64,000 bases of DNA from Mobula hypostoma (taxonomy: Eukaryota): contig NC_086107.1 of assembly GCF_963921235.1 (NCBI RefSeq), positions 95,668,001 to 95,732,000 on the forward strand. Direction: 5' to 3'. Positions 550-58,559 of the stretch are shown here, piece by piece. The first letter of the stretch is position 1. The number at the start of each line of letters is the position of its first letter. The translations under genes were made by a program, and so were the position numbers. The notes below the pieces were generated by a model. The model was not told the origin of the DNA, did no database searches, and saw only the letters and a list, made by a program, of their open reading frames with translations.

Positions 550-1559
550 GTCTCAAATTTAAAATGCGCCCCTTACATTTAAACATTTGCTTCAAGGTAC
601 ACCAATTCCATTTTACAAGTCTCTCACTGTGGCAGGAGCAATACCTCTCTGTTTGTGGCATGTCGAACTGTTGGAGTGACAGCGGCTTTTGATGGACATG
701 GTCTCTTTGGGGGCTCTGCTAATGCTGACATGGCAGGTGGTGGGGGGGGGCTAGTGCCTTTTGCTGAGGCAGGTAGGGGAGAGGGAAGGGAAGGGTTGGT
801 GCTTTGCTGCTTGTGCATGGGGGAGTGAAGGGGGTTTGGGGTTCTAACGTTTTCCTGTCATCTATTCTTTGGGGTTTTTCTTCTATTTTATGGATGTCTG
901 TGGAGAGCGAGAACTGCAGGTTGTATATTGCACACATTCTCATCATTAAATGTAACTATTGAACAATCACAAGTCAACTTTGTCCACAAATCAGAAAATA
1001 CACAAATATCTCCAGATGAATCTCAGGAGTTGTATACACACTCTGGATAATAAATGCACTTTGAATCTTCGAAATCGTTCCGATAACCATTCCAAAGAAA
1101 GGAAACGAGTTCTGCCATTTGTTGGAATGAACATGCATACGTATATGAAGGGCCGTGCAAAAGTCTTATATACAGTTAGGGTGAGGGAATTCATAGGAAC
1201 GAGGACAACAGGTAAAGGAGGTCAGGGAGGAAGGCATTACCCTCAGGAGGGTGAGGATTTTCGAGTAGTACAAGGAGGTCAATACCACAACATGATAAAA
1301 TCAGAACAGGAACCGAAACCCAACAAGAGACAAAAGAAAAAATTTCTTCTCTCAAAATGTTGGCCCATTTTATTTTGATATACATGTGACAAATAAAGAT
1401 AATTTTTCAGATTGAATCAGATCTTCAATTTGAACAGAGGGAAATACAATCGCATCATCAATAGGCTGAATCACCTTCTGTACTGAAGTTTTCATGAATC
1501 TTAAGGCCAGTGGAAAGGGTGAAAGCAGTAAAATTACAGGGCAAGTTATCAAAATTTAA

Positions 1560-2290
1560 GCTCGATCAGATAGGCATGTGGGCAGATGTTTGGCAAAAGG
1601 TTTCAATTCAGGTTAAGTGTGAAGTGCTGCATTTTAACCAGGGTGGGGGCTGTGGAACAGAGGGGTCAAGCAGTACCATTTTGTGGTTCACTGTAAGTGG
1701 CATCACAGATAGTCAGGATGGTGAAGGTGTTTAGTACACTGGTCATCATCAGCCAGGGCATTGAGTATAGGAATTAGGATGTTATATTGCCACCGTACAA
1801 GATATTGGTGAGACTATACTTTCAGCATTGCGTAAAGTTTTGGTCAGCCTGTCATAGGAACCACGCCATTAACTCAAAAAAATATGGAGAAGAATTACAA
1901 GGACGTTGCCGGGACTCAAGTCTCTGAGAGGATGAGGGAGAATTTGGGCAGGCTAGGACTTTATTCCTTAGAGTGAGGGGTGACTTAAATCACAAGGGGC
2001 ATAGACAGGTTGAATGCCTTTTACCGGGAAAAGTGATCTTAAAAAAAATATTGGGCATAGGTTTAAGGAGAGAGGTGGATGATTTAAACTGGGACCTGAA
2101 AGGCAATTTCTTTACATAGAGGGTGGCTCATATATGGAATAAGCTGCCAGTAGAAATGGTGAGGCAGATGCAGCAATATCTAAAGGTCATTTGGATAAGG
2201 ACACGGATAAGAGGGTTTTTTAGAGGGATACGGGCCAACAGCAGGAAAATGGGACTAGTTTGGTGGGCAGCATTGTCGGCATCGATGAGT
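1560..2290 (+). mobile_element. Degraded CR1-clade LINE 3' fragment
   Basis: KCEVLHF and other RT C-terminal remnants matching the better CR1 copies in this window. Confidence 0.75.
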
Positions 2291-2389
2291 CGGGCCACAC
2301 TGCATTCTCTACACCTCGAAGACAGAGAACAATAACAAGATCGTTCCTAGTCATTAATCCAAGGAAAGGATCCTATGAAAGGTAGTAGA

Positions 2390-2885
2390 ATCAGCCCAGT
2401 AAATCATGGGTGAAGCCCTCCCACTGTTGAGCACATCTACATGAAACGTTGTCGTAGAAAAGCAGCATCCATCATCAAAGATCCTCAACATCCAGGCCAT
2501 GCTCTTTTCTCACTGCTGCCATCAAGTAAAAGGTACAGGTGCCTCAGGACTCGCACCACCAGGTTCAAGACCATTTACTACCCCTCAACCATCAGGCTCT
2601 GAACAAAAGTGGGATAACTATGCTCATTCTATTTCTGGTCTTCCCACAACCGATGGTCTCACTTTAAGGACTCTTTATCTTGTTATTTCATGCTCTTTCA
2701 TTTCATGTTATTTTATAGTCGTTATTTATGCTATTTATTTATATTTACATTTGCACAGTTTGTTATTCATTGATCTTGTTTACAGTAACTGTTCTATAGG
2801 TTTGCTAAGTATACCAGCAGGAAAAAGAATCTTGGAATTGTATGTGCTGACATGTATGCACTCTGATAATAAATTTTATTTTCAA
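2390..2885 (+). mobile_element. Rex1/Babar-type LINE 3' end
   Basis: LPTVEHIY...RRKAASIIKDP..HALFSLLPS remnant, then an AT-rich 3' UTR ending GATAATAAATTT. Confidence 0.75.
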
Positions 2886-3347
2886 CTGATTTTCATTGAT
2901 TTCAGAATAATCTAAGTTGATCACAGATGACATCAGGATCTAGATCAACTGGGCAAAGGGAGCCAAGAAATGGCAGATGGAATTTCACTCGGGAAAGTGC
3001 AAAGTGAAGCTTCTTGAGAAGTTAAACCAGGCCAGGGCTTCCACTGTGACTAGCAATGTTGTAGAACAGAATCCCACACGTGCAAATAGATAGATAATGA
3101 CAGAAATATACCACCTAGACAAAATGGTGAGGAAGACACATGGCACTTGCCCTCATTGGTCAGGAGGTTTGGTCTAAAATAGAGACAGCAGATTACAACC
3201 ACACAAGATTCAGGCGAGCCCGCACTCAGAGTACTATGTTCAGTTCTAGTCACTATACTGCAGGAAGCACGTGATTAAGCTAGAGAGGATACAGAACAGA
3301 TTCACAAGGATTTTGTTTGGCGGGCTTGAGTTACGAGGAGAGACTGG

Positions 3348-4202
3348 TGTTACGGACCCCGTAACTGGGTTGCCAAACCAGCAGAAATGGACCACTTAGT
3401 TGGAGTCTGGATTACTGGAACTAAGAAAGTTTTATTAAAGAAATAAGCAACACAGTACTCTAATCAAAAGGATATAAATGCAACAGTTTAGCAATGATAA
3501 AACACACATGTACACAGAACTAGGATAATAGGATCAATCAAGCTCTATCGCAGTCTAGGGGTAAATGATCAGTTTCAAGTGACGCAAAGTTCAGTTCAAT
3601 TTAGTTCAGTTCGCAGTAATCGCTGTTGTGCTGTTGGGCGGGGAGAAGAGAGAGAGAGAGAACGAATGAATATGCAAATCGGATTCCAAACAGACCTTCG
3701 ATATTCCTCGCAGTTAGCTTTCGGGCGAGCCCTTTGTAATGACTTCTGAGGTCACCGACTGTGACCCCTCCGTTCCAGATACGATCGTTCTTCTGCGGTG
3801 AACCCGGCACCCAGGCAAGGGCGGACACACACACACCAGGTTCCCGCCCGACCGTATCTTTCCACCCTGTGCGCCTATGGCTGGTCCCGCGACCAAACCT
3901 CCAAAAACTCCCACCAACTTGTGGGGGGGGGGGGGGGCACACCGCTTCCAGGGTCTCGTTACCTAGTGGTGTCGTGTGTCTGTTGCCTTAGCGAACCTGT
4001 CCCTTTTTATCCCCCTGCTGGGGTATTGCCTGTCCATCAAACTTCAAACAGTTCAGGGTTCAAAGCCACCGGTCTCTGACAATACTCGGAACCGTGTCTC
4101 CTTTCGGTAATCTCTCTCGTCTCTCTCTTATTAGCACCTTGCATGTTCCCCCATTGTCCTCTTATCGGCATCAATCTTCTGATAACTGGTTCTTTTGTCA
4201 CA
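3348..4202 (-). mobile_element. Solo LTR (855 bp) inserted in a CR1 fragment
   Basis: TGTTAC...GTCACA termini; 4-bp TSD CTGG (3344-3347, 4203-4206); CR1 sequence resumes on both sides; AATAAA on the minus strand near 3431. Confidence 0.85.
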
Positions 4203-5385
4203 CTGGATGGGTTGAGATTGTTTTCCCCGGAGCAAACGAGGCCAAGAACTTCTCCTTGTACAGGAGAAGTTTATAAAACCGTGGTCAGTCTCTTTCCCAA
4301 ACTTGGGAGTCTAAAACTAGAGGACAATAGTTTTAGGAGAGAGGGGAATGATTTAAAAGGGACCTGAGGGACAAGATCCAAGATCCCGCCCCCCAAACGC
4401 GCACACAGGGTGGTGAGTAAACAATGAGTTGCCAGAGAAGGTTGCCAAGGTGAGTACAATTACAGAGGTTAAAAGACATTAGAACAAGTAAAGGATAGGC
4501 AAGGTTCTTGCAGGATACGGGCCAAAAGCAGGTAAGTACCACTGGAGTAGGTATGCACCATGATTGGCATGGGCCAGTGGGCTGAATGGCCTGTTACCAC
4601 ACTGTGTTGCTCTGTGACTATACTCGAGCAGACAGCTCGGCAGCATTCCCACATCTCGTCAGGAACAGTAGCTGATCACAACACGGTGCACAGCAGGATC
4701 CCCCAACTTCAGCCAAAGTGGGCGTCACCAGATAAAGAGCACAGACAAAGCAACCACATTCAGCCAGAACTGCCCAGTGGATTATCAATGTTCCCCATCA
4801 TTACACAACACAACCTGCAACCACCTAGCTTCTCTCCAAGTCAGATCAGAAATTAGATGAGATTGTAAGAAAGCTTAGAGACCAGCCAGTGTCCTTAAGA
4901 CTCCAGAGGCAGCTGAGCTTCTAACTGAGCTGCTGCACCATTTCCCACCGTGGAATAGAACATCGAAATCTACAGCACATTACAGGCCCTTTGGCCCACA
5001 ATGTTGTGCCGACCATGTAACCTACTCTAGAACCTGGCTAGGATTTCCCTACTGCATAGCCCTCTATTTTTATAAGCTCCATGTACCTGTCTAAGAGTCT
5101 CTTGAAAGACCGTGTTGTATCCGCTTCAATCACCGCCGCCGGCAGTGCAGTCCATACACCCACCACTCTGTGTGAAAAACTTACTGTTGACATCCCCTCG
5201 GTACCCATTTCCAAGCACCTTAAAACTATGCCCCCTCGTGTTAGCCACTTCAGCCCTGGGAAAAAGCCTCTGGCTATCCACACGATCAATGCCTCTCATC
5301 ACCTTATACACCCCTATCAGGTCACCTCTCATCCTCATCGCTCCAAGGAGAAAAGGCCAAGTTCACTCAACCTGATCTCATAAGG

Positions 5386-7540
5386 CAGTGGTCCTCAACC
5401 ACCGGGCCGCAAAGCATGTGCTACCAGGCTGCGAGGAAACAATATGATCTGGCGATATGAAACGATATGGGTCAGCTGCACCTTTCCTCATTCCCTGTCA
5501 CGACCACTGTTGAACTTGAGTGCATGTGAGGTCATTACGCACGCGTCATCCATGTCCGCACGGGAAGAAGATCAACTCCTCGAGCTTGCAAATGACGGCG
5601 GGCTGAAAAGAATGTTTGACATAACATCTCTGCTGGCATTCTGGATCAAAGTCAAGGCTGAATATCCTGAGATAGCCACGGAAGCACTGAAAACATTGCT
5701 TCCATTTCCAACATACCTCTGCGAAGCAGGGTTTTCTGCAATGAATGCAACGAAAACTAAATTGCGGAATAAACTGGAAAACTGGACATAAGGAACCCCC
5801 TTCGAGTATCGCTGTCTCCCATCACCCCTCGATGGGACCGTCTTGTTGCAGGGAAACACGCTCAGGGCTCCCGCTGATCCAGCGATATTAGTGTGTTGCA
5901 ATGAGTTTATATATTCATACGAGGAAAATATATGCTGTGTTTAATATCCAAATGTTACTTAAAATGTTATGATGCTATTGACTTATAAGTGACTTATAAT
6001 TGTCTTATCACTATATTCATGGGAGGAAAATATGCACTGTGTGTTTAATATTAAATTCATTAGATAAACCCTTTTAGAAACGAAATCGAGTGTATTAGCC
6101 ACTTATAAGTGACTTTTAGTTGACTTATCACTTATATTCCAGTTGTGATTAACACCCCTCCCCCCAGGGTTGCCAACTGTCCCGTATTAGCTGGGACATC
6201 CCATATAAATGTGAGGTTATTCACTTTGGTAACAAGAACAGGAAAACAGATTTATTAGCTGAATGGTGGCCAATTAGGAAAAGGGGAGGTGCAACGAGAC
6301 CTGGGTGTCATTGTACACCAGTCATTGAAAGTGGGCATGCAGGTACAGCAGGCGGTGAAAAAGGCGAATGGTATGCTGGCATTCATAGCAAGAGGATTCG
6401 AGGACAGGAGCAGGGAGGTACTACTGCAGTTGTACAAGGCCTTGGTGAGACCACACCTGGAGCATTGTGTGCAGTTTTGGTCCCTTAATCTGAGGAAAGA
6501 CATTCTTGCCATAGAGGGGGTACAAAGAAGGTTCACCAGAATGGTTCCTGGGGTGGCAGGACTTTCATATGATGAGAGACTGGATCGACTAGGCTTATAC
6601 TCTCTGGAATTTAGAAGATTGAGGGGGGATCTGATTGAAACACATAAAATTCTAAAGGGATTGGACAGGCTAGATGCAGGAAGATTGTTCCCGATGTTGG
6701 GGAAGTCCAGAAGGAGGGGTCACAGTTTGAGGATAAAGGGGAAGCCTTTTAGGACAGAGATGAGAAAAAACTTCTTCACACAGAGAGTGGTGAATCTGTG
6801 GAATTCTCTGCCACAGGAAACAGTTGAGGCCAGTTCATTGGCTATGTTTAAGAGGGAGTTAGATACGGCCCTTGTGGCTAAAGGGATCAGGGGTATGGAG
6901 AGAAGGCAGGTATAGGGTTCTGAGTTGGATTATCAGACATGATCGTACTGAAGGCGGTGCAGGCTCGAAGGGCTGAATGGCCTACTCCTGCACCTATTTT
7001 CTATGTTTCTATATTGGGCTAAATTGGTTTGTCCCATACGGGACCGTCCTTGTCCTGTATTTCTCCCGTAAAGGTAGAGCGTTCCTATGAAACCTTTCGT
7101 GCTGAAATGACGTAAAGCGAAGAAGCAATTATCATTAATTTATATGGGAAAAATTTTTGAGCGTTCAGAGACCCAAAAAATAACCTACCAAATCATACCA
7201 AATAACACATAAAACCTCAAATAACACTAACATATAGTAAAATCAGGAATGAGATGATAAATACACAGCCTATATAAAGTAGAAATAATGTATGTACAGT
7301 GTAGTTTCACTGAAGAATCGCTAAAACTGATTTGTAGAAAAAAAAATTGGCACGTACACGCATGCGTATGGCATGTACGCGTACACAAGTGCCCGCGCAA
7401 GGCTTCATCATCATGGTAGGCTTTCTCCGGGTAAACAGTGAGAAAGTTGGCAACCCTACCCCCACCCCCAGTCGGCCGGTCCGCAAGAACATTGTCAATA
7501 TTAAATCGGTCCGCGATGCAAAAAAGGTTAGGGACCCCTG
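5386..7540 (+). mobile_element. Non-autonomous hAT (Charlie/Buster-like) element with nested insertions
   Basis: TIRs CAGTGGTCCTCAACC / GGTTAGGGACCCCTG; perfect 8-bp TSD TCATAAGG (5378-5385, 7541-7548); transposase C-terminal remnant FWIKVKAEYPEIA...LLPFPTYLCEAGFS. Confidence 0.92.
6205..7012 (+). mobile_element. 5'-truncated CR1 LINE nested in the hAT element
   Basis: ORF 6289-6915 is a CR1 RT C-terminus (LYKALVRPHLEHCVQFWS, FFTQRVVNLWNSLP); the element ends in a TATGTTTC repeat tail. Confidence 0.92.
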
Positions 7541-8249
7541 TCATAAGGTACGTCCTCCCATCCAGGCAACATCCTTGTAAATCTCCTCTGTGGCAGTGGA
7601 AGTTTGCCAAGATTTACCCTGGAGCTAATACTTCATGTTACTAATTCATAACATATATGACAATGTGGTACTAGTCCAGACAAACTTATTCACACAAGGC
7701 AGAGCCAACCAAAGCCAGTTAATTACCACCTAATTAATCAGAGTGAGGCAAGATGCAACTGCTAAAATAGGGACAGCATTACTTTCCACTAAACTGCTTA
7801 CTGCTTGGATTTTTACCAGGACCACCTCACCCCCAGTCCTCATTACCCTCAGTCCAAACATAGTTAAATCTGGAAGCAATAACGAGAAAGAGAACAGACA
7901 TTTATTGATCCTTGAATAGTGAACCGGGTCACGCTCTCGTCTCACTGCTGCCATTAGGAAGGTGGAACAAGAGTCTTAGGACTCATATCACCAGGCTCAG
8001 GAACAGCTATTACCTCTCAACCATCAACCAGTGGCGATTAACTTCTTCAACTTCACTCATGCCATCACTGAACTGTTCCCACAATCTCTATGGACTCACT
8101 ATCAAGGACCTGTCATGTCATGTTCTTGATGTTTATTAGTTATTTATGTGTAATTATTACTTTTTTCTCCTTTGTATTTGCAGTTTGTTGCACATTCCTT
8201 GTTTGCCCACCCTGTTGGATGCAGTCTTTCAGTGATTCTATAAAGGTTC

Positions 8250-9895
8250 TTGGATGGTGAGGACAATATGAGTCAGGTTGATGTTCTGGAGCATGTTGAT
8301 ATTAAGAGAGAGGAGGTGTTGGAGTTGTTAAAATACATTAGGACGGGTAAGTCCCTGGGGCCTGATGGAATATTCCCCAGGCTGCTGCACTAGGCGAGGG
8401 AAGAGATTGCTGAGCCTCTGGCTAGGATTTTTACGTCCTCGTTGTCCACGGAAATGGTACCGGAGGATTGGAGGGAGGCGAATGTTGTCCCCTTGTTCAA
8501 ACAAGGTAGTAGGGATAGTCTGGGCAATTATAGACCAGTGAACCTTACGTCTGTGGTGGGAAAGCTGTTGGAAAAGATTCTTACAGATAGGATCTCTGGG
8601 CATTTAGAGAGTCATGGTCTGATCAGGGACCGTCAGCATGGCTTTGTGAAGGGCAGATCGTGTCGAACAAGCCTGATAGAGTTCTTTGAGGAGGTGACCA
8701 GGCATATAGATGAGGGTAGTGCAGTGGATGTGATCTATATGGATTTTAGTAAGGCATTTGACAAGGTTCCACATGGTAGGCTTATTCAGAAAGTCAGAAG
8801 GCATGGGATCCAGGGAAGTTTGGCCAGGTGGATTCAGAATTGGCTTGCCTGCAGAAGGCAGAGGGTCGTGGTGGAGGGAGTACATTCAGCTTAGAGGATT
8901 GTGACTAGTGGTGTCCCACAAGGATCTATTCTGGGACCTCTACTTTTGGTGATTTTTATTAAAAACCTGGATGTGGGGGTAGAGGGGTGGGTTGGCAAGT
9001 TTGCAGACGACACAAAGGTTGGTGGTGTTGTAGATAGTGTAGAGGATTGTCGAAGATTGCAGAGAGACATTGATAGGATGCAGAAGTGGGCTGAGAAGTG
9101 GCAGATGGAGTTCAACCCGGAGAAGTGTGAAGTGGTACACTTTGGAAGGACAAACTCCAAGGCAGAGTACAAAGTAAATGGCAGGGTACTTGGCAGTGTG
9201 GAGGAGCAGAGGGATCTGGGGGTACATGTCTACAGATCCCTGAAAGTTGCCTCACAGGTGGATAGGGTAGTTAAGAAAGCTTATGGAGTGTTAGCTTTCA
9301 TAAGTCGAGGGATAGAGTTTAAGAGTCGCAATGTAACGATGCAGCTCTATAAAACTCTGGTTAGGCCACACTTGGAGTACTGTGTCCAGTTCTGGTCACC
9401 TCACTATAGGAAGGATGTGGAAGCATTGGAAAGGGTACAGAGGAGATTTACCAGGATGCTGCCTGGTTTAGAGAGTATGCATTATGATCAGAGATTAAGG
9501 GAGCTAGGGCTTTACTCTTTGGAGAGAAGGAGGATGAGAGGAGACATGATAGAGGTGTACAAGATAATAAGAGGAAATAGATAGAGTGGATAGCCAGCGC
9601 CTCTTCCCCAGGGCACCACTGCTCAATAGAAGAGGACATGGCTTTAAGGTAAGGGGTGGGAAGTTCAAGGGGTATATTAGAGGAAGGTTTTTTACTCAGA
9701 GAGTGGTTGGTGCGTGGAATGCACTGCCTGAGTCAGTGGTGGAGGCAGATACACTAGTGAAATTTAAGAGACTACTAGACAGGTATATGGAGGAATTTAA
9801 GGTGGGGGGTTATATGGGAGGCTGGGTTTGAGGGTCGGCACAACATTGTGGGCCAAAGGGCCTGTAATGTGCTGTACTATTCTATGTTCTATGTT
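8250..9895 (+). mobile_element. CR1 LINE reverse transcriptase region to 3' tail (pseudogenised)
   Basis: YRPVNLTSVVGKLLE, QHGFVKGRSC, YMDFSKAFDKVPH, GVPQGSILGP, FADD; in-frame stops near 8391 and 8892; (TATGTTC)n tail. Confidence 0.95.
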
Positions 9896-10604
9896 TATTT
9901 ACTGAGTCTACCCACAAGAAAACAAACCTCAGGATTGGATATGGCGACGTATATAAATAAACTTACTTTGAACTTTGGACCATTCCCTATCTGCATGCAG
10001 CAAGAGCTGGAGAACTTTAACAATACAAACAGAAATTCCTGGAAGAACTCACTTCAGGCTGAAGACACCCCACATGACTATTCCTCCTCCCACAGATTCA
10101 GTCTCCTTCCAACATTTTGATTTTGTTTTAGATTTCTAATATTTACCAGTTTGCTTAGATTTTCGTGACAGAGCATTCCAACAGCACGTGCATTTCATGT
10201 CACAGACGTAGGGACACAGATCAAGCCTGACCTAGTCCAAACCCATCTTTTTGCCCATTGACAAATTCCATTTGCCTAAATTAGGAATGTATCCTTCGAT
10301 ATTTTAGAAATAGCTTCTTCCCCTCCGCTATGAGATTTTTGAATTGTTCATCTACTTTCCTCTGCTTTTGTACTAATTATTTATTATAACAGCCATTTAT
10401 GTATTGCATTGTACAGCGGTGGCAAAATGACATTTCAAGATATATGGCACGTCAGTGATAATAGGTTAGCAGGTTAATTGGCCATTGTACATTGTATTGT
10501 GATTAAGCTAGTATTAAACAGGTGGTTGCTGGGTGTTGTACTGCGTCTGTACTGCACTGTATCTCTAAATAAATACATAATAAACTTAACTCTAATGTCC
10601 ATCT

Positions 10605-10802
10605 GGGGTGTATGGGGTGTCCAGGGAGGGGTAGCACCTCTGGTGGGGGGGGGAGGGGGCTACCATGCCCTTTTCAGGGCAGCTCATCCACCTTTGGTCC
10701 CCACCTGGCGCTCAACTCTCACCTGTGGCTCCAAGTAGTTGTAGCACGCGCAGCGGCCACACCCCGGTAAACCGTCTCGGCACACAGGCCAAACCAGGTG
10801 AG
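10605..10802 (+). ncRNA. HDV-like self-cleaving ribozyme (predicted)
   Basis: P1 GGGGTGT 10605-10611 / ACACCCC 10759-10765; P2 CTCACCTG 10718-10725 / CAGGTGAG 10795-10802; P3 GGC 10727-10729 / GCC 10756-10758; P1.1 CC 10731-10732 / GG 10766-10767; J4/2 CCAA 10789-10792. Folded by eye. Confidence 0.7.
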
Positions 10803-11144
10803 GGTAGCCGATGGGTCTTTGACCCTCGGCGAGGTAGGGGATCTGCCTGTCCCAACGTGTGAAGTCTGGCCCTGGTAGATTGAGCGGAGGAGACTGATTA
10901 ATGGTCCAACGGTCAAGAAGGCAGGGCCAGCGGGCGTGGTGGAGTGCTAAGAGCACGGGAAGACACTTAGACGTCCTGGTCATCCATTGCAAGAGGTGGT
11001 GATCTCTTTAAGCTCACCCGGCAGTAGGCAAAGGCAAACCACTGCTGTAACCTGCCACGAACATGATTTCCCAATATGTCAGAGCGGCGTGGAGGGAAAT
11101 TATCCGCCAACTGGAAATTCCAGATGCGACCTAAAGCGAGCGAG
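10605..11144 (+). mobile_element. Short non-autonomous retroposon with an HDV-like ribozyme head and RTE-like 3' end
   Basis: 8-bp TSD TGTCCATC (10596-10603, 11145-11152); RTE/BovB-like 3' motif GGCAAACCACTGCTGTAACCTGCC; no A/B boxes seen. Confidence 0.8.
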
Positions 11145-11419
11145 TGTCCATCGAAGTGCCTTTTAAATGCAGTAATTGTATCTGACTGTATTGTGTAAAA
11201 AGAGAATTGCCCTCAAATTCCTCTCACTTTAAAACTTTGCTCTGACTTCCGACATCTCACTGTCCATGCCTCTCACAACCTTACATTCTTCCAACAAGTC
11301 ACTCTCTGTCACGACCTCCTTCACTCCATGGAAGGCAAACCAGGCCTATCCAACCCAGGCACTGTCCCCGTGAATCTTGGCCGCGCTCTGTCCCACGTTC
11401 TTGCTGGGGTGCGGCTAAC

Positions 11420-11720
11420 AGCTTCTTCTTCATGTGCCTTGCATGTTATACGCTTGGGCGATCACATCTGTCCACATCGAACGATCCCTCGCAGCGTCAA
11501 TGATATCTCGCACACTTAGATCTGTTAGTTCTTTCAGTGTCCATATATTTTCTTCTTAGCCTTCCTCTTCCGTGTTTACCAGGCATATGGCCTTGTAATG
11601 TAAGGCATTCTATTTCTCCCTTTCTGATGACATGGCCCAGGAATTTAAGTTTCCTCTCGTTTGATGTTCTCATTTTTGTATGGGCACATTGGAGTACTGT
11701 CTCATTAGTTACCCTATCTC
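11420..11720 (-). mobile_element. RTE-clade LINE 3' ORF fragment
   Basis: Minus strand: RKLKFLGHVIRKGEIECLTLQGHMPGKHGRGRLRRKYMD...ARDRSMW, a typical RTE C-terminus. Confidence 0.75.
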
Positions 11721-11732
11721 TAAATCATGAGT

Positions 11733-12045
11733 GGGCACGTGGCCAAGTGGTTAAGACATTGGACTAGCAACCTGAAGGTCGTGAGTTCGAGCCCCAGCCC
11801 GAGGGAACGTGTTGTGTCCTTGAGCAAGGCACTTAATCACACATTGCTCTACGATGACACCGGTGCCAAGCTGTATGGGTCCTAATGCCCTTCCCTTGGA
11901 CAACACTGGTGTCGTGGAGAGGGGAGACTTGCAGCATGGGCAACTGCCAGTCTTCCATACAACCTTGCCCAGGCCTGCGCCCTGGAGAGTGAAGACTTTC
12001 CAGGCGCAGATCCATGGTCTCGCAAGACTAACGGATGCCTTTAAT
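11733..12045 (+). mobile_element. tRNA-derived SINE
   Basis: A box TGGCCAAGTGG 11740-11750 and B box GAGTTCGAGCC 11783-11793; a second copy lies on the minus strand at about 38405-38710. Confidence 0.85.
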
Positions 12046-18769: not shown

Positions 18770-19965
18770 CACAGTTACCCCACATACCCTGAGACAACTT
18801 TACCTACACCTCCGCCGCTGCCCAGCACAATGTTCCTCCCAGATACACTGTTACTCACCCAGAGTTACCGACCCCCACACACACTGTTACCCACCCAGAG
18901 CTACCGACCCCTCCACACACTGTTACCCACCCACCCAGTTACCGACCCCCACACACACTGTTACCCACCCAGAGTTACCGACCCCTCCAGACACTGTTAC
19001 CCACCCAGAGTTACCGACCCCCACAAACACTGTTACCCACCCAGAGTTACCGACTCCTCCACACTGTTACCCATCCACCCAGAGATACCGACCCCCAGAC
19101 ACACAGTTACCCTGTTACCCACCCATCCAGAGTTACCGACCCCCAGACACACAGTTACCCACCCAGAGTTACCGACCCCCACACACACTGTTACCCACCC
19201 AGAGTTACCGACCCCTCCAGTTACCCACCCAGAGTTGCCGACCCCCACACACACTGTTACCCACCCACCCAGAGATACTGACCCCCAGACACAGTTACCC
19301 TGTTACCCACCCACCCAGTTACCGACCCCCAGATACACTGTTACCCACCCAGAGTTACCGACCCCCAGACACACTGTTACCCTGTTACACACCCACCCAG
19401 TTACCGACCCCCAGACAGTTACACTGTTACCCACACACACACAGTTATCCTGTTACACTCACCCACCCAGTTACTGACCCCCACACACACTGTTACCCAC
19501 CCACCCAGAGATACCGACCCCCAGACAGTTACCCTGTTACCCACCGAGTTACCAACCCCCAGACACAGTTACCCTGTTACACACCCACCCAGTTACCGAC
19601 CCCCAGACAGTTACACTGTTACCCAACCACCCAGAGTTACCGACCCCCACACAGTTACCCTGTTACACTCACCCACCCAGTTACCGACCCCCAGACACAC
19701 TGTTACCTACCCAGAGTTACCAACCCCCACACACAGTTACCCTATTACACTCACCCACCCAGAGTTACTGACCCCCAGACACACTGTTACCCACCCAGAG
19801 TTACCGACCCCCACATACACAGTTACCCTGTTACACTCACCCACCCAGAGTTACTGACCCCCAGACACCCTGTTATCCACCCAGAGTTATCGACCCCCAG
19901 ACACACTGTTACCCACCCAGAGTTACCGACCCCCACATACACAGTTACCCTGTTACACTCACCCA
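18770..19965. repeat. Compound minisatellite, about 36-bp core GTTACCCACCCAGAGTTACCGACCCCCAGACACACA with variants
   Basis: Directly visible tandem array; C-rich plus strand, G-rich minus strand. Confidence 0.95.
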
Positions 19966-20030
19966 CCCATCGCCAGCACACGGTAACCAGTCCGTCCGCT
20001 CCTCCGGTCCAGGACCGCCCAACCAATCGC
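19963..20030 (-). other. Probable non-coding first exon of the RAS gene
   Basis: CpG-rich unique sequence ending in a GG|GTGAGT donor (intron begins at 19962 on the minus strand), next to CCAAT and GC boxes. RAS genes have an upstream non-coding exon. The TSS is not determined. Confidence 0.6.
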
Positions 20031-20150
20031 GTCCGCGGACGCCCGGGGCAGCCAGCCAATCACAGCGCCTACTCGGTTGGATTTTGTCCAGTGAGGACAG
20101 GCCGCCAGGGGGGCCTTTGCCGCCTGTCTTACGGCTGCCTGTCAAATATT
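19970..20150. promoter_or_regulatory. CpG-rich TATA-less promoter, possibly bidirectional
   Basis: The clearest non-repeat CpG cluster in the window. GC box CCGCCC at 20015-20020; CCAAT at 20023-20027 and 20056-20060 (AACCAATCG, AGCCAATCA, NF-Y-type), 33 bp apart. Confidence 0.7.
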
Positions 20151-20379
20151 TCTGGAACGAAGGTTTAATTTTAAAAAAAAGAAAACACGTAGTGAATAAT
20201 TTGAACGAATTGTTCATGGGGCTGGTGCTTCGGCATAATTAGCTGACTGGATTGTTCGATGTAAGCCGCAAGAGGAGGTACCTCAGTGTCAGGACCCAGA
20301 TTTTGACAGGGACAATTCCGCTGGGTGGGTGGGGGCCCGTTCTTCATTATTTATGAACATTATTCGGATGTGAGTGTAC

Positions 20380-21520
20380 AAAGTATGGTTTGTTCGTGAA
20401 GTAGTCTTCTCTGAATTGCAGGGAGATCTTGATCAGTTAGAGAGTGGACTGAGGAGTGGCAGATGTTTTTTTTAATTAACTAAGTATGAGTTGATGCATT
20501 TTGGACCTTCTAACCTATACAGTGAATGGCAGGGCACTGAAGAGTGTTCTGGGACAGAAGGGCCGAGCAGTACAAGTGAACAATTCGCGTGAGTAGACAG
20601 GGTGGTGAAGAAGGCTGCCCTTCCTCAGTAGGGGATTTAAGGGTTATATGGGGAAAAGGCAGGTAGGTGGAGATGAGTCCATGGTCTGTGGAATTCTCTG
20701 CCACAGGAAACAGTTGAAGCCAGTTCATTGGCTATATTTGAGAGGGAGTTAGATATGGCCCTTGTGGCTAAAGGGATCCGGGGTATGGAGAGAAGGCAGG
20801 TGCAGGGTTCTGAGTTGGATTATCAGCCATGATCATACTGAATGGCGGTGCAGGCTTGAAGGGCCGAATGGCCTAGTCCTGCACCTACTTTCTATGTTTC
20901 TATGGTCAGATCAGTCATGATCTTATTGAATGGCAGAGCAGGCTCGATGAGCTGGATGGCCTACTCCCACTCCTATTTCTTATGGTCTTATGTTTATGTT
21001 AGTCAGGGTTGTTAGTTTAGGAGCAGGAACATTATGTTGCAGTTAGATATGATGTTGGTGACACTGCTCTTAAAGTATTTATGTACAGATTTGGTTACTC
21101 TGTTAAAGTAAAGACGTTGTCAAGGTGGAGAGGGTTCAGAAGAGATTTACGAGGATTTTGCATGTTTTCAGGGCCCAAGTTAAGAGAGAGGGGTTGACCA
21201 CACTGAATCTATTCCTTGGAGCGTAGGACAATGAAGGGTGACCTCAAAGAAATTTATAAGGGGTATGGATGAGGTGGACAATCATAGTCTTTTCTCCAGG
21301 GTTGGGTAGTTCAGATAAGAGGGGATAGATTTAAAAGAGATGTGAGAGGCAACAACTTTGACAGAGGGTCGCGGGCATGAGCTGCCAGAGGAAGTGGTCG
21401 AGGCAGGTACAGTGGCAATATGTGAGGCATTGGGAGGGTTATGGGCTGAAAACAAGCATTTGGGATTAGTGGGGCACGTGGTGTGGTCTGTATAGAGTCG
21501 ATTGGCCAATGGGCCTGTTT
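20380..21520 (+). mobile_element. Nested CR1 fragments
   Basis: 20685-20903 is near-identical to the CR1 3' end at 6795-7010; older CR1 remnants flank it. Confidence 0.8.
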
Positions 21521-21579
21521 TTCTCACTTTAGTATTGATATGCAAAGATTTAGGACTGCTCCACAAGTTAAAGTCTTAA

Positions 21580-23700
21580 ATCAAAATCAGATTTATTATC
21601 ACTGTCATAATGTCATGAAATTTGTTTTGTGGCAGCAGTTCATATAAATTTACTGCAAGTTAAAATAAGAAATATATGAAAACTTTAAAAGAGCAAAATA
21701 GTGATGTAGTGTTTATGGGTCAATGGAGCATCAGAAATCTGATGTGGGAGGGTAGGAAACTATTCCTAAAACGTTGAGCGTGCGCCTTCAGGCTTGGTAT
21801 CACTCTCTGATGGTGGCAGTGAGAAGTGGGCATATTCTGGGTGGTAAGTGCCCTTATAATGGGAAACACATTTCTGAGGCACAGTTTTTAAAGGTGTCCT
21901 CGATGGTGCGGAGGCTTGTGCCCATGATGGAGCTGGTTGAGTCTACAACCCTCTGTAACGCTTTTTAGTCCTGTGTATTGACACCTCGATACCAGTCGTT
22001 AATGCAAAAGACAACAAATTCTGCAAATACTAAATAAATAAATAAACAACAAATATCGAGAACATGAGATGAAGAGTCCTTGGGTTGTGAGAACATTTCA
22101 GTGCTGGGGTGAGTGAAGTTATCCCCTCTGGTTCAGGAGGCTGATGGTTGAAAGTAATAACCCGGTAGTGTGGGACCTGGGTCTCCTATACCTCTGTCCT
22201 GATGGCAGCAGTGAGAAGAGAGCATTGCCTGGAAGGTGGGGGTCCTTGGTGATGGATACTGCTTTCTTGTGACAGTGTTCCTTGTAGATGTGCTCAACGG
22301 TGGGGAGGGCTTTACCCGTGGTGGACGAGGTCATATCCATTACTTTTTGTAGGCATTTCCATTCAAGGGCATTGGTGTTTCCACACCAGGCCATGGTGCA
22401 ACCAGTCAATATTCCCTCCACCACACACCTATGGAAGTTTGTCAGAGTTTTAGCGGACACGCCAAATCTTTGCAAACTTCTAAGAAAGTAGAGCTGCTGT
22501 CGTGCCTTCTTTGTAATGGCACTTGTGTGTTGGAGCCTCTGAAATAAATATGCCGAGGAATTAAAAGTTGCTTACCCTCTCCACCTCTGATCCCTCAATG
22601 AGGACAGCCTCATGGACCTTGAGTTTCCTCCTCGGGAAGTCAGTGATCAGCTCCTTGGTCTTGCTGACATTGAGTGAGAAGTTGTTGTTGTGGCACCAGT
22701 CTGTCAGATTTTCAATCTCCCTCCTGTATGCTGATTCATCACCAGCTTTGATTCGGCCAATGACAGTGATGCCTTTGGCAGACTTAAATATGGCTTTGGA
22801 GCTGTGCTTAGCCTCACAATCATAAGTGTAAAGTGAGTAGAGCAGGGGGCTAAGCACACAGCCTTGTGGTACACCTGTGTTGATGGAGATTGTGGAAGAG
22901 ATGTTGTTGCCAATCTGAACTGACTGGGATCTGCAAGTGAGGAAATCCAGGATCCAATTGCACAAGGAGGTATTGAGGCCAAGGTCTTGGAGCTTATAGA
23001 TTAGTTTTAAAGAGGGGTTAGTATCGACTGCCAAGCTGTAGTCGATAAAGAGCATCCTGATGTATGCATCTTCGCTGTCCAGATGTTCCAGGGTTGAGCG
23101 AATAGCCAGTGAAATGGCATCTCCTGCTGAGTTGTTGTAAATGTAGGCAAATTGGAGTGGATCCATGTCTCTTCTCAGGCTGGAGTTGAAATATTTCATC
23201 GCCAACCTTTTAAAGCATTTAATCACAGTGGATGTAAGTGCCACTGGACGGAAGTATTTGAGGTACGTTACCATGTTCTTCCTGGGCTCTGGTATAATTG
23301 AGGCCAGCTTAAAATAAATGGGTACCTCAGACTACCGAAGCGGGAGGCTAGAGATCTCAGTGAACACTCCAGCCAGTTGATCAGCACAGGTCTTTAGTGC
23401 TCGGCCAGCTACCCAGTCTGGGCTGGATGCTTTCTGTGGGTTCACCCTGCTGAAGGATGCTCTCAGAGACTGAAATCACAGGGTCATCGGGAGCTGTGGG
23501 AGCTCATGAAGGTGCCTCCATGTTTTGTCGGTCAAGAGGCGTTGAGCTCATCTGGGAGTGAAACCTTGTTGTCACATAAGTTGCTTGGTTTTACTTTGTA
23601 CGAGGTGATGGCATTCAAGCCCTGCCACAGCTGACAAGCATCCTTCAGCGATTCAAGTTTGGTCTGGAATTTCCACTTCGCATGTAAGATGGCACTGCAT
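21580..23700 (-). mobile_element. Rex1/Babar-type LINE (RT and 3' region), degraded
   Basis: ORF 22561-23274: RPVALTSTVIKCF, DPLQFAY, YIRMLFIDYS, GVPQGCVLSPLLYSLYT; ORF 22119-22475 gives the C-terminus. Confidence 0.9.
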
Positions 23701-23859
23701 TACAATGTTGGCGTGCAGAACAGCATCACTGAATACACGGTCCGTCAAGTCTTGAAGTGGATGGCTACAGCAGCAACAGATCACGACATACACTCAATGG
23801 CTACTTTATCAAGTTGTAGGAGGTATCTAATAGAGTGGCCGCTGCAGGTTTAATGTAGC

Positions 23860-25000
23860 CACAGGAGATGGGTGAGGTCTTAAATGAATATTTCTCATCT
23901 GTGTTTACCAAGGAGAAGATCTCAGAAGCTAAGGAATTCATGGAAGAGACGGTAATGTCCTAAAACGTATTAACTTCACACAAAAGGGAGTGCTGGTGGT
24001 GTTGAAGCTGTATAAAATTATATAAATCACTTGAGGCATCACCAAATGTATCCTGGGAGGCACAGTAGCGTTGCGGTTAGCACAGCGCTTTACATTACCA
24101 GCGACCCGAGTTCAGTTCCTGCCTCTGCCTCTCATAGTCCAAAGACGTACCAGTTGGTAAATTAATTAGTCATTGTAAATTGTCCCGTGATTAGATTAGG
24201 ATTAAATTGGGGGATTGCTGGGCGGCGTGGCTTGAAGGGCTGGAAGGGCCTGTTATGCATTGTACAGCAATAAATAAATTAATAGATTAAAAAGTTCGGG
24301 AGGCAAGGGAAGAAATGGCAGGAGCCCTGGCAGAGGTATCTGTACCATGGCTAGCCACAGGTATGCTACTGGAAGACTAGAAGGTGGCTTATGTTGTGTC
24401 TCTATTACAGAAGGGCTGCGGGGACAAACCAGAGAATTACAGGCTGGGGAGCCTGACGTCAGTGGTGGGGAAGTTACTGGAGAGATCCTGAGAGAGAGGA
24501 CTTACCAGCATTTGGAAAGGCAAGGACTGACTGGGGAGAGTCCGCATAAACTTGTCCAAAATGCAAAGGGCAATGCAGTAGACATTTTGTTTGTGGACTT
24601 GGCTTTTTGACAGGGTAGGCTGCTCTGGAAGGTTAGATCGCATAGGATCCAGCGCAGGCTGTGCAATTAGATAGAGAAGCAAGCTTGGTGTAAGGAGCCA
24701 GAGGGTAGTTACTCGGACTGTACATCTGTGATCAGTGGTGTGTCACAGGGATCGGTGCTGAGCCCGCTGCTGTTCGTCATGTACTTTAATATATTGGATG
24801 AGAATTCACGTGGCAATGTTCCTAGATGAGTGGATGACATCAAAGCTCATGATTCAGTGGACAGTGAAGAAGCTTGTCAATGCTTACAGCAGGATTTGGA
24901 TCAACTGGGAAAGCGTGAACTGGGACATAGGCAAAGTGATGCATTGTGGAAAGTTAAACCAGGACAGGACATACAGTGAAGTGCAGGGCCCCAGAGAATG
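23860..25000 (+). mobile_element. Degraded CR1 LINE with a nested SINE
   Basis: NYRLGSLTSVVGKLLE and GVSQGSVLSPLLF remnants. Confidence 0.75.
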
Positions 25001-25029
25001 TTTAGAACAGAACATTATAGGGTCTACAG

Positions 25030-25790
25030 GAGGAAGAAACCGGAGGCCCATGAGCCAGTCCTCATTAGGGTATCAGACATGGAGAGGATTTCTTGGCATT
25101 TTCATATCAAAGGATCTAGTCTAGGACCCAGTATGTACAAACGGTAATTGCATTACAAAGAACCTCTACTTCCTTAGAAGTTCGCACAGATTTGGCGTAT
25201 TTTCTAAAACTTTGGCAAGCTTCTATAGATGCACACTAGAGAGCATCCTGACTGGTTCCTTCACGGTCTGGTATGGAAACACCGATGCCCAGGAATGCAA
25301 AAGCCTACAAAAAGTAGTGGATACAGCCCAGTCCATCTCAGGCAAACTCTCCCCACTGCTGAGCACATCTACGAGGAGCACTGTTGCAGGAAAGTGGCAT
25401 CCATTATCAAAGACCCCCAATATCCAGGCCGTGCTCTCGTCTTGCTGCTGCTATCGGAAAGGAAGTACAAGAGCTTTAGGTCCCACACCACCAGGTTCAG
25501 GAACAGTTATTACCCGACAATCATCAAGCTTCTGAAGCAGCATGGATAACTTCACTCACCTCGATACTGAACTGATTCCATAACCTATAAACTCACTTCC
25601 AAGGGCTCAACAACTCGTGTTCTCAGTGCTATTTACTTGTTTTTATTTACACTGATTATCTTCTTTTGTGCATTTTTTTTCTCAGTCTTTGTGTGTGGCA
25701 ATGTTAATTCTATTGTATTTCTTTGTTGTGCAGCAAAGACCTGCAGGAAAATAAATCTCGGGGTAGTATATGGTGACATGTATGTACTTT
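25030..25790 (+). mobile_element. Rex1/Babar-type LINE 3' end
   Basis: FYRCTLESILTGSFTVWYGN...SHTTRFRNSYYPTII. Confidence 0.85.
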
Positions 25791-26254
25791 GAAATAGGCA
25801 TTTTGACTCAACACAACCGTGCCAAGTGGCTTGGCTCAGCTCCCCCCATTTTCATTTCTTATCCATGCACCTCTCCAAATGTCTTTTAAATGTCATAATG
25901 TACTCACATCTACCACTTCCTCTGACAGTTTATTCAGTATTCTCTCCAGCCCCTGTGTGGAAAATGTTCCCCTTCAGGTCTATTTTAAATCCTCCCCCTC
26001 TCAGTTTAAACCTATGCCTTCTAGTTTTGGATTTACCTACCTTAGGAAAAAAGGCTCAGTTACTCACCTTAGCTATGCCCTTCTTGATTTTATAAACCTT
26101 GTTAAGTTTGCCCCCTCATCTCCCTTCACTCAAGAGGAGGAAGTCCCAGCCTATCTAGTTTCTCCTTATAACTCAAATCCTGCAGGCCTGGTAACATACT
26201 CATAAATTTTTATTTTGCACATTCTACGGTTTAATGATGTCCTTCCCTTGAGTG

Positions 26255-26822
26255 AGTGAGACCTCCTTCTGTCAGAGTCGACCATGGATGTTGTGTCCTA
26301 GCTGTCTAGATACACAAGCCAGGGCAGTACAATATGGAGAGCAAGCTGTTGCCCTGTAGCAGGCTCCTCCTCTCCGCACAGCTGATGACCCCAAAAGAAC
26401 AGCAGAGACCAATACAGTTTGGTACCAGCAGTGTCACAGGAGTTCCAGTCAGCATTGAACTCAATGTTGGACTGCCTTAGGGACTCCAGCTCAGGTTTTT
26501 TCCCTCGGAGTTTACTCCCGAAGGCTTCCCCATGAGTGGGTGCAGCTGCAAGGCAGTGGAGGTTTGAGGTCAGAGTTTGCCTTCTCCTAGATGAGCTGCC
26601 AAACACGACTGACACGTCCCATCTGCCTGAAGCAACTGGGTTTAAGGTGCCAGCAACCCACCTTTGCCTGTCAGTGGAAACTGTTACGCCAGGCTTAGTA
26701 GCTAAGCCACACATGAAGGCCGGGAGTTGGACTTGGTTTGCAGAGACTATTTGAGGTGCATGCCATTGGGAGTATTTAGTAGATCGTGGGAGCTTGTCCC
26801 CATTACCACCCCCAGCTATAAC
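26255..26822 (-). mobile_element. Short non-autonomous retroposon (SINE-like); partial second copy at about 53135-53510
   Basis: Two clearly homologous copies; the 3' portion shares GTGGAGAGG...GGGCAAC and ATCCATGGTC with the tRNA SINE at 11733. Confidence 0.7.
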
Positions 26823-28240
26823 AACCCTAAGGAACTATCGTTCCTAATAGAACTGCGCACAGTACTGATACAACATCGGACAATAGAGGACCAGGGTCTT
26901 CCACTGACAATACCTGTACTGAACATGATAATTCTTTCTGCTTGTACATGATCCTTCCTTTCCCAGTATATTCACCCAGCTATCTAAAAGCCTCTTAAAT
27001 ACAATTTATTCATTGTCATATTGCACGCAGTTCTTTGCAGCCTTTCTTAAAGAACATTACCTCCCCCCCCCCACCAATCTAATGGCGTCTTACCTATGGC
27101 TAGCAAATATGATCACAAGAGACCCTGAAATTTCTCCCCTGGCTTTCCACAATGTTCTGGGACAGTGTTGTAAAGGACTCATCTTTGTGCTTGTCGAATA
27201 TCTCACCAACACAGTGGCCTTGAGAGTAACAGAACTTCTTATACTTTCACTCTTTCATTAATCCTGTTTAGTTATTACTGTATTCTATAGATTGCTGAGT
27301 ATGTCTGCAGGAAAATAAATCCCAGGGTTGTATATGGGGATGTGTATGTACTCTGATAATAACTTTTTTCTTTGAACTGAGAAAAGTTTTAAAATTATTA
27401 GTGTTATGGTCATAGTTTTCCCCAATGATACTGAAGTCTCTTGCCCTGCTTTCTTTTCCATTGAAGAGGTTGAGTTTTGCCTCTTCTCAAGTTGGGTCAT
27501 CCATATATTGACTGAGAGCAAATCCTAAACATGCTTAACAAATTCCGAGAGACCAGGGGTACAACTCCAACATTCCCTGAGAGTGGTGAAGAAGACATAC
27601 CAGGCAACACACTTGCCTTCATTGATCAGGACATCAGTAACACTCAAAACATCATATCACAGCTGTGTGAGACATTGGTGAGATTGCACCTGGGACATTG
27701 TTTAGAGTTCTGGTCACCATACTACTGAATGATCTGACTAAGTTAGAGAAGGTGCTGAAAAGATTCTGCGGGGTGTTGCCAGTACAGGAGGACCAAATCT
27801 GCAAGGAGCGATGTTATAGGCTAGGACTGTTTTGTCTGGAATGGAGGAAGCCAAGGTGTGACCTTATAGGGGGCCATAAATTAGGTGGATGGTCACAGTC
27901 TTTTTCCCAAGGTAAGGGAGTCATAAAGACAAACAAGCACAGAAATGAGCCCCTTGGATATCCAAGATCCCAATCCAAGCTAGTCCCATATTTGGCCTAT
28001 ATACCTCCAAACTTTTCCTATCTATGTACCTGTTCAAGTAACTACTAAATGTCAACCAATTTCTCTGGCAGCTGATTCCATATACTGACCACCCTGAGTG
28101 AAAATGTTGCTTCTCAGCTTCCTATTAAATCTTAAACCTTATATTGATGCCCTTTAGATCACACAAACCTGGGGAAAATACTGTGTGCATTGGACATTTT
28201 CTTTGTCACTCGTGAGATCACCTCATGTTCTCCTACTTTC

Positions 28241-28644
28241 CAGTGAAGGCAGCCCCAACCTGCACAACTTCTCTCCGTAACTCTGTCCATCAATGAAGGC
28301 AGCCTCAACCTGCACAACCTCTCTCCGTAACTCTGTCCATCAGTGAAGGCAGCCCCAACCAGCACAACCTCTCTCCGTAACTCTGTCCATCAATGAAGGC
28401 AGCCCCAACCTGCACAACCTCTCTCCGTAACTCTGTCCATCAATGAAGGCAGCCCCAACCTGCACAACCTCTCTCCGTAACTCTGTCCATCAATGAAGGC
28501 AGCCCCAACCAGCACAACCTCTCTCCGTAACTCTGTCCATCAATGAAGGCAGCCCCAACCTGTGCAACCTCTTTCCGTAACTCTGTCCATCAATGAAGGC
28601 AGCCCCAACCTGCACAACTTCTCCCCATAGCTCTGTCTATCAAT
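28241..28644. repeat. Tandem repeat, 8 x 50 bp, derived from CR1 coding sequence
   Basis: Unit CAATGAAGGCAGCCCCAACCTGCACAACCTCTCTCCGTAACTCTGTCCAT starts at 28241, 28291 ... 28591. Confidence 0.95.
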
Positions 28645-30087: not shown

Positions 30088-30482
30088 TGGTGGCGGGGTG
30101 GAGATGCGTCTCTGCCAAAGGAGGTGTAAGGTGCTCCTTCCCTCCACTATCCTGCAGGTCACCCTTGGGCAAAGTGTAGTACCTGCTTAGCCCCCCCCCC
30201 CCCGCCGATCAGGGGCACATGAAGCCGTGGGAGCAGGTGGTGGATGGTCGTGGGAGCCCCTGGTGCACATCACAAGTCCTGGTTATGTGACCACTGACGC
30301 CAGGCAGACAATCTCTGTAGAGTATTGATAATGGCTGAGGTCACCTGTCTTATAAAGACAGTGCCCAGAAGAAGTCAATGGCAAACCACTTCTGTAGAAA
30401 AATTGGCCAAAAACAATCATGGTCATGGATAAGACTGTGATCGTCTATATCAGTACGACATGGCACATGATGATGATGATGA
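30088..30482 (+). mobile_element. Non-autonomous RTE-tailed retroposon; second copy on the minus strand at about 35780-37018, split by an LTR
   Basis: GGCAAACCACTTCTGTAGAAAAATT RTE-like 3' motif, (GAT)n tail, two homologous copies. Confidence 0.75.
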
Positions 30483-30599
30483 ATCATAGGGACTCAGTGG
30501 ATGAGTCCTCTCCGAGTATAGCACAGGAGCTGGCTCTTTGGCCCAAAATGATTTGCCAAACCAATTAAATTAGCAATCAAATTGCTGACTAAACTAATA

Positions 30600-57545: not shown

Positions 57546-57843
57546 TTCAGTAGAATTTGAGTAATATCGTAAATATATTGTTTAAGTGTTCTTATTCATT
57601 TAAACAATTCAGTACTGTTTATATGAAAAATTGATGAATTGCATACATCATGACGCTATCATGTGATACACGCGTATAAAGTAAAAATGAAATACATAAT
57701 TTATTTTCTGATTCGCTTGTCTTCCTTTCAATTAGTTTAATGTTTTGAAGTTGTAAAGCATAACAGATAGGAAATCCAAATCGGAATCATGTTTATTGTC
57801 ACTGACATAGTCGTGGAATTTGTTGCTTTGTGGCAGCAGTATA

Positions 57844-58508: not shown

Positions 58509-58559
58509 CGCAATTTATTTTATTTATATTGTATATATTGCAAAACATAATCATAAAAG

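Follow-up and report, generated by a model that had tools for sequence, protein, structure and literature searches.

How does a short non-coding repeat with no recognizable RNA polymerase III (Pol III) gene at its head acquire the same 5' end in copy after copy? The question is raised by an element in a stretch of 64,000 nt from Mobula hypostoma (NC_086107.1, positions 95,668,001-95,732,000, forward strand), which is called the window below and in whose coordinates all positions are given. The element occupies positions 10604-11144 on the plus strand (541 nt), is non-coding, and lies between two copies of TGTCCATC, its target site duplication (TSD). It belongs, as a moderately decayed copy, to an abundant family of non-coding non-LTR retroposons that resemble short interspersed elements (SINEs), a family occurring both in this organism and in relatives of it. 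An initial annotation had proposed that its first bases form helix P1 of a ribozyme similar to that of hepatitis delta virus (HDV), and it is this proposal that is weighed here.

A retroposon family with a sharp 5' end

The initial annotation had described a non-coding element of about 540 bp between repeats, starting with GGGGTGT after one extra T. Both statements hold: the 541 nt carry TGTCCATC at both ends, and T10604 is followed by the heptamer at 10605-10611. Since the flanks of the family are T-rich, T10604 is perhaps a flanking or an untemplated base. The heptamer is tandemly duplicated, with a second copy at 10614-10620, a detail absent from the earlier description. The longest open reading frame (ORF) of the element, an antisense one of 107 aa, has no relatives in the protein database searched (0 matches), and no second copy of the element was found within the 64-kb window.

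Copies of the family were sought in public sequencing runs, which were screened with 31-mers of the element; four runs were aligned to positions 10350-11400 at 80% likeness. Element 31-mers occur in 20 runs from nine organisms (A-I). The best 14 runs (organisms A-G) hold 0.25-0.36 of the 31-mers and the other six 0.04-0.14; none holds half. The alignment yielded 4909 contigs in run X1 (organism A), 4180 in X2 (organism B) and 364 in X15, a run guessed to be RNA, while no reads aligned in the raw-read run X22. No RNA run was identified as such among the runs matching the element. The X1 contigs carry the window's own flanks (10350-10588 and 11105-11400) without any difference.

The family borders coincide with the TSD borders. 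Summed depth in X1 steps up from 988 in bin 10566-10601 to 71,407 in bin 10602-10637 at the 5' border; at the 3' border there is a drop from 9927 in bin 11106-11141 to 115 in bin 11142-11177, placing the 3' end at 11144. Contig alignments start at 10604, 10605 and 10606 in 168, 106 and 87 cases in X1, and in 136, 85 and 53 cases in X2, where 47 more start at 10609. The pile-up of 5' ends at G10605, proposed earlier as a check, is thus present among the contigs, the starts being clustered at 10604-10606 rather than scattered. The sequences upstream of these starts are T-rich and mutually unrelated (agreement 0.35-0.39), and therefore represent many independent insertions sharing a 5' end within one base of the first G of P1. 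The family is SINE-like: its many copies are dispersed, flanked by TSDs, non-coding and fixed at both ends. We regard the retroposon family and its sharp 5' end as established, with very little room for doubt.

The family is high-copy in at least two organisms and consists of three modules, namely a 5' head of about 200 nt, a body and a 3' tail. In X1, depth is lowest in the body (1,000-10,000 at 10818-10997), intermediate in the tail (20,000-35,000 at 10998-11105) and greatest in the head (71,000-120,000 over bins 10602-10745). Within the head it sinks to about 24,000 in bin 10638-10673, a place of subfamily differences. In X2, too, the head is covered most deeply.

The flanks of the window copy have features of their own. 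The upstream flank (10386-10601) is repetitive, with a summed depth of up to about 10,000 in X1, and ends in an AT-rich tail, which suggests that the element landed at the terminus of an older repeat. Downstream, the flank is single-copy. One X2 contig aligns to the downstream flank (11145-11400) with about 90% identity, starting exactly at 11145, and continues with 31 bases unlike the element. It may represent the empty orthologous site in organism B, in which case the insertion would be younger than the split of organisms A and B.

The head and its predicted HDV-like fold

A script listing HDV-like topologies anchored at 10605, with L3 of 5-30 nt allowed, returns exactly the arrangement of P1, P2, P3, P1.1 and C10789 that had been claimed (Table 1). 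Its parts follow the order of a nested double pseudoknot, P1-P2-P3-L3-P3'-P1'-P1.1'-P4-J4/2-P2', with a P2 of at least 5 bp and a P1.1 of 2 bp. All seven pairs of P1 (10605-11/10759-65) and all eight of the P2 core (10718-25/10795-10802) are Watson-Crick; by manual reading of the sequence and the fold, P2 extends to 11 bp with one G.U pair (10715-25/10795-10805). The first base of P1 is the predicted cleavage site, where the helix of the window copy closes with a G-C pair, and P3' (10756-58) directly abuts P1'. J4/2 contains the candidate catalytic C10789 and has two extra bases before P2', unless C10794 is bulged. The joining segment J1/2 is long and structured, as the initial annotation had it, with 106 nt that also fold alone. 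Its length is no obstacle, because J1/2 measures 216-498 nt in R2 ribozymes (PMC3774820).

Two kinds of search bear on the probability of such a fold. A strict descriptor admitted only Watson-Crick pairs, with J1/2 of at most 120 nt and L3 of 5-30 nt. Of 127,400 starts on both strands of the window, nine match it with P2 of at least 6 bp and three with P2 of at least 8 bp; at each cut-off two of the matches are the two GGGGTGT copies of the element. Among 200,000 dinucleotide shuffles of the first 300 nt, anchored at the first base, the same descriptor is matched by 14 and by two, respectively. In a lax scored search the real score is 61, which none of 6000 shuffles reaches (maximum 60, 99.9th percentile 54). 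Among the 42,448 three-start blocks on both strands of the window, the two blocks of the element stand alone at 58 or higher, and the next best scores 56. No other HDV-like arrangement in the 64 kb thus scores as high as the one that begins with the opening base of a TSD-flanked element. Some local canonical details lay outside the score: U-CC follows P3, and P3', P1' and GG adjoin one another in this order. From the statistics and these details, it seems likely that the architecture is genuinely HDV-derived and not a product of chance.

Family variants mapped onto the fold

The variant data comprise 40 of the 147 difference rows, together with loose-end consensuses from the contig alignments. 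None of the 14 listed variable sites in 10605-10810 falls into the 40 bases of P1, P2, P3 and P1.1, where about 2.7 would be expected (p about 0.05, manual count). The family majority has G at 10715 (A>G), in the extension of P2, with pairing kept as G.U.

In P4, the majority has G at 10783 (C>G, 82 X1 contigs) and G at 10786 (A>G, 66 X1 contigs), and these bases make P4 a 5-bp stem (10772-76/10783-87). The subfamily dominant in X15 combines 10775 T>C with 10784 A>G (30 and 31 X1 contigs), which is a double, compensatory change from U-A to C-G in P4. In J4/2, the commonest X1 form has 10790 C>T, giving C-U-A-A. In 60 X2 contigs the last base of P1' is T, which would give a G1.U wobble, a pair typical of HDV-like ribozymes. 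None of these variant features entered the score, and they lend the fold some additional support.

The J1/2 stretch 10646-10690 differs between subfamilies, with 239 X1 and 174 X2 contigs diverging after 10645; joints with replaced letters occur as well. Subfamily differences and indels also cluster in the middle of L3 (about 10739-10752), as indicated by loose ends at 10738 and 10742, an insertion behind 10750 and a drop of depth in bin 10746-10781. The ends of L3 (U-CC-AAGUAG and CAGCG) and the following P3'-P1'-GG are conserved across subfamilies.

Arguments against self-cleavage and alternative explanations

A number of observations weigh against the head being a ribozyme. L3 builds the active site of HDV-like ribozymes, and here it has 26 nt (about 28 by manual count in variants) instead of a compact 7-8 nt; we know of no comparable L3 insertion in ribozymes of this kind. 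In R2 and HDV, P1.1, P3 and L3 together amount to 15 nt (PMC3774820), so that L3 there has about 7 nt. No alternative with L3 of canonical length was found: by eye, no GG followed by C or T lies 5-10 nt upstream of P3', and the enumeration over 5-30 nt gave only 26. J1/4 has 4 nt vs 0-2 in R2 (PMC3774820), J4/2 has 6-7 nt and thus also seems too long, one base is left unpaired between P2 and P3, and the window copy carries two changes weakening P4. The search with HDV models suggested by the initial annotation gave no HDV, CPEB3 or drz match in Rfam at E<=10 over 10400-11400; these models are expected to miss the head, because its J1/2 and L3 are long. A competing structure, predicted for 10715-10805 by itself, is a simple hairpin that buries C10789 through pairing of GGC 10727-29 with GCC 10788-90. 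Folding energies do not stand out either, with z of -0.26 for 10605-10810 and of -2.1 for the entire element. A lax yes/no descriptor (G.U allowed anywhere, one P1 mismatch, P2 of at least 5 bp) is matched by 1808 of 3000 shuffles (60%), so the topology alone is cheap and significance rests on the quality of the helices. The site of the G1.U variant is a CpG and the change is thus explicable by CpG decay, while covariation in P1, P2 and P3 is absent among the listed rows, the helices being invariant there, which is uninformative either way.

The explanation that we favour for the head is a non-canonical HDV-like self-cleaving ribozyme with an expanded L3, a reading that we hold to be about as likely as not. 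The same family could instead have a non-catalytic head, acting as an unrecognized internal promoter or as a protein-binding or stabilizing pseudoknot, or being the relic of a dead ribozyme, with the 5' end resulting from transcription initiation at G10605 or close to it. This explanation, which we find credible while still doubting it, would account for an L3 whose length is incompatible with all characterized ribozymes of the HDV-like kind (PMC3774820), for the lack of an Rfam match and for the competing hairpin 10715-10805. SINE families with defined transcription starts also produce sharp 5' ends, and the family majority reads CTCGACTC at 10711-10718 (with the 10715 A>G change), which we take to be a partial B-box-like motif by comparison with the consensus. 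However, no A box is seen by eye in the head, nor is there similarity to tRNA, 5S, 7SL or snRNA, and a non-catalytic head leaves unexplained why the best HDV-like arrangement of the window begins at the first base of the family, and why the canonical U-CC, P3'-P1'-GG and C-U-A-A details are present.

The head could also derive from another processed small RNA, for instance one resembling intron-encoded snoRNAs, with P1 as its terminal stem. Retroposons mobilized by RTE elements and headed by something other than a Pol III gene do exist, as exemplified by the snoRNA/RTE chimeras of the platypus (PMC5499810). P1 closes a domain of 161 nt in the minimum free energy (MFE) fold, and the head is the most abundant module. 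Still, such an origin is improbable, as no small RNA of Rfam matches at E<=10, neither C/D boxes nor the two-hairpin layout of H/ACA RNAs are seen by eye, and the P2 helix crossing P1 and the HDV-like junction details would go unexplained. That the pairing is mere coincidence in a GC-rich retroposon head appears about equally improbable: the permissive descriptor is indeed matched by most shuffles, and the limits of the descriptor (30 for L3 and 150 for J1/2) were chosen with the candidate already in view, but the score exceeds those of all 6000 shuffles and all other positions of the window, and the coincidence with the independently mapped 5' end of the family adds roughly a factor of 100 or more. 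The overall reading of the initial annotation is supported in part: the family, its sharp 5' end, the lack of a detectable Pol III-type head and a statistically exceptional fold at the exact 5' end stand, whereas the length of L3 and the lack of an Rfam HDV match speak against a ribozyme.

If the head is a self-cleaving ribozyme, the following scheme may be proposed. P1 would be built from the very first seven bases of the element (10605-11), so that a cut 5' of G10605 would release its RNA from whatever read-through transcript contains it. Every new copy would thereby start at the same base and bring the complete ribozyme with it, and the reverse transcriptase of a long interspersed element (LINE) would presumably recognize the 3' tail. 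Self-cleavage, dependence on read-through and the LINE partner are inferred. A broader version, which we put forward tentatively and with less confidence than the ribozyme itself, is that a major repeat family of a vertebrate lineage may be headed by an active HDV-like ribozyme in place of a Pol III gene, tolerating about 20 additional, variable nt at the L3 apex, a build unknown among the characterized members. The head would be the most abundant and best conserved module, common to several families and species.

The consequences differ accordingly. Should the head cleave, the range of short retroposons headed by a ribozyme, which covers R2 SIDEs in rDNA and elements of trypanosomatids, would come to include a dispersed family in a genome of vertebrate type. 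A Pol III promoter would then not be needed for SINE-like elements to attain high copy numbers, and the HDV fold would accept a large L3 insertion, which calls for wider descriptors in genome searches. Should the broader version be true, self-cleavage would be a mainstream SINE strategy in that lineage. Without cleavage, the family would be a SINE-like repeat of the ordinary sort, whose structured head lacks an explanation.

Origin of the head, the tail and the partner LINE

The claimed lack of a tRNA, 5S or 7SL head is borne out by Rfam and ARAGORN. Neither ARAGORN nor Rfam, the latter run with gathering thresholds on the whole window and with E<=10 on 10400-11400, matched the element to tRNA, 5S, 7SL, snRNA or snoRNA; the sole Rfam returns were noise (mir-1249, Atu_C4) and a tRNA elsewhere in the window. 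The head thus has no detectable derivation from tRNA, 5S, 7SL or snRNA, and the element is not a classical SINE. Scans with exact patterns of head motifs gave 0 loci in the metagenome contigs and genome contigs covered.

The tail may resemble those of BovB/RTE elements. It shares a conserved motif with short repeats at 30290-30520 (plus strand) and 35740-35970 (minus strand). These two are copies of another short repeat, 88% alike, which may use the same LINE partner as the element. No partner LINE with the tail of the element was found in the window by a Pfam search of 17 long ORFs, which returned only RVT_1, zf-RVT and one weak sub-cutoff zf-C2H2_12 match (E about 0.001).

Close to the element, at 11290-11724 on the minus strand, lies the 3' end of a 5'-truncated LINE, consisting of an ORF tail (...GRGRLRRKYMD...DRSMWTDV*) followed by the 3' untranslated region. 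It is presumably RTE-like. Comparison of this fragment with the element by tblastn and blastn gave nothing significant, and a Pfam search with its 75-aa piece gave nothing.

The insertion signature of RTE elements is described as a TSD whose first base is T and which follows a stretch of T, together with a microsatellite-like 3' end (PMC6007223). The TSD of the element starts with T, the upstream flanks of the family are T-rich and the 3' end reads (GCGA)2G, while no clear T stretch lies upstream of the window copy. The T-rich flanks, the T-starting TSD and the (GCGA)2 end fit this signature, without proving RTE.

Features of the element and of the rest of the window

Table 1. Parts of the element and of its predicted fold (window coordinates).
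Feature	Positions	Strand	Basis or remark
Left TSD, TGTCCATC	10596-10603	+	Jump of family depth and pile-up of loose ends start just 3' of it
Junction T	10604	+	Base -1 relative to the predicted cut, or else the element's first base
P1, 5' strand, GGGGTGT	10605-10611	+	Enumeration; helix also in the MFE fold of 10605-10810
J1/2, 106 nt, self-structured	10612-10717	+	-51.9 kcal/mol alone, z -1.1
P2, 5' strand	10715-10725 (core 10718-25)	+	Enumeration, fold
P3, 5' strand, GGC	10727-10729	+	Enumeration
L3, 26 nt, starts U-CC, ends GCG	10730-10755	+	Enumeration
P1.1, CC:GG	10731-32 : 10766-67	+	Enumeration
P3, 3' strand, GCC	10756-10758	+	Enumeration; abuts P1'
P1, 3' strand, ACACCCC	10759-10765	+	Enumeration
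P1.1, 3' strand, GG	10766-10767	+	Enumeration
P4 hairpin	10772-10787	+	Weak in the window copy; pairing derived manually from variant letters
J4/2 with candidate catalytic C10789	10788-10794	+	Sequence, enumeration
P2, 3' strand	10795-10805 (core 10795-10802)	+	Enumeration, fold
Body	10818-10997	+	No convincing coding signal; lowest family depth
3' tail module, ending in GCGAGCGAG	10998-11144	+	Motif common to two other short repeats of the window
Right TSD, TGTCCATC	11145-11152	+	Family depth 9927 to 115 at the border

Coding exon 1 of a RAS-type GTPase, the sole RAS exon found, is at about 300-430 on the minus strand. The element lies on the strand opposite to RAS, about 10 kb upstream of this exon in the RAS direction, and the other coding exons are expected to the left of the window. 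A place within the RAS pre-mRNA, assumed by the initial annotation, is thus no more than a possibility.

Other repeats are frequent in the window. A tRNA-related, SINE-like repeat forms an inverted pair at 11731-11990 and 38458-38712 (90% and 78%), and the tRNA match at 38643-38705 (29.8 bits) is the window's only Rfam match at gathering thresholds. A C-rich array at 18790-20010 has a period of about 36 nt, at least 20 copies of units like AGTTACCGACCCCCACACACACTGTTACCCACCCAG and a GC skew of -0.47. A 50-nt tandem repeat at 28141-28690 comprises about 11 units, 93-97% alike in the centre, and TGTCCATC occurs in each of seven of its units. Inverted arms of about 700 nt at 52424-53115 and 57842-58519 are 88-98% complementary and 4.7-5.9 kb apart, and may represent a large foldback or terminal-inverted-repeat element. 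A long LINE-type ORF at 61127-64000 (plus strand), with RVT_1 (E 1.6e-20) and zf-RVT, runs off the window end; other RVT_1 fragments are at 22564-23331 (minus), 8895-9581 (plus) and 31740-32333 (minus).

Comparison with known systems

Classical SINEs resemble the element in size, head/body/tail layout, high copy number, TSDs and a tail shared with other repeats. However, they combine a tRNA, 5S or 7SL head with a LINE tail, while the element has no detectable Pol III-derived head. HDV-like ribozymes process the 5' ends of R2, L1Tc, NARTc, RTE and baggins elements (PMC6765202; PMC3414825), and RTEs and some non-autonomous elements are listed by reviews as carrying such ribozymes (PMC6765202).

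R2 and its SIDEs are among the closest known systems. R2 SIDEs keep the 5' ribozyme (PMC3414825) and, like the element under the proposed reading, are non-autonomous non-coding derivatives that keep a 5' ribozyme together with a 3' end bound by the reverse transcriptase. P1 of the R2 ribozyme sets the 5' end by cleaving a co-transcript, which is the scheme proposed here, and both systems have a long J1/2 and 5' junctions varying by 1-2 bases (PMC3774820; PMC3414825). In contrast, R2 is site-specific in 28S rDNA and has L3 of about 7 nt, whereas our family is dispersed, with T-rich target flanks, and has L3 of 26-28 nt; no parent LINE with the head of the element was found in the window.

As is proposed for the element, LINEs of the RTE clade are promoter-less, dispersed and transcribed by read-through, carry the ribozyme at the extreme 5' end and have the TSD directly adjoining the cleavage site (PMC6765202, PMC8501958, PMC7761336). 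Ribozymes of this clade are HDV-like in several metazoans, while Perere-3 of Schistosoma has a twister variant, whose cleavage site is likewise adjacent to the TSD (PMC8501958). The element differs in being 541 nt long and non-coding.

Its affiliation to RTE is putative. The trypanosomatid derivatives of L1Tc/ingi, NARTc and SIDER (Pr77/L1TcRz), are short and non-autonomous, and have in common with their parent LINE an HDV-like ribozyme at the very start (PMC3383444, PMC4035085). At 77 nt these ribozymes are compact, and they also serve as internal promoters; the clade, the host and the build of the ribozyme differ from those of the element.

The novelty implied by the initial annotation is therefore overstated. 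The concept was already known for RTE, R2 SIDEs and NARTc. No description of a ribozyme-headed SINE-like family in fishes was found in the literature listings searched, Dfam and Repbase being outside this search. The proposed mechanism is of a known kind; new would be, first, such a family, dispersed, very abundant and non-coding, in a genome of vertebrate type and, second, the expanded L3.

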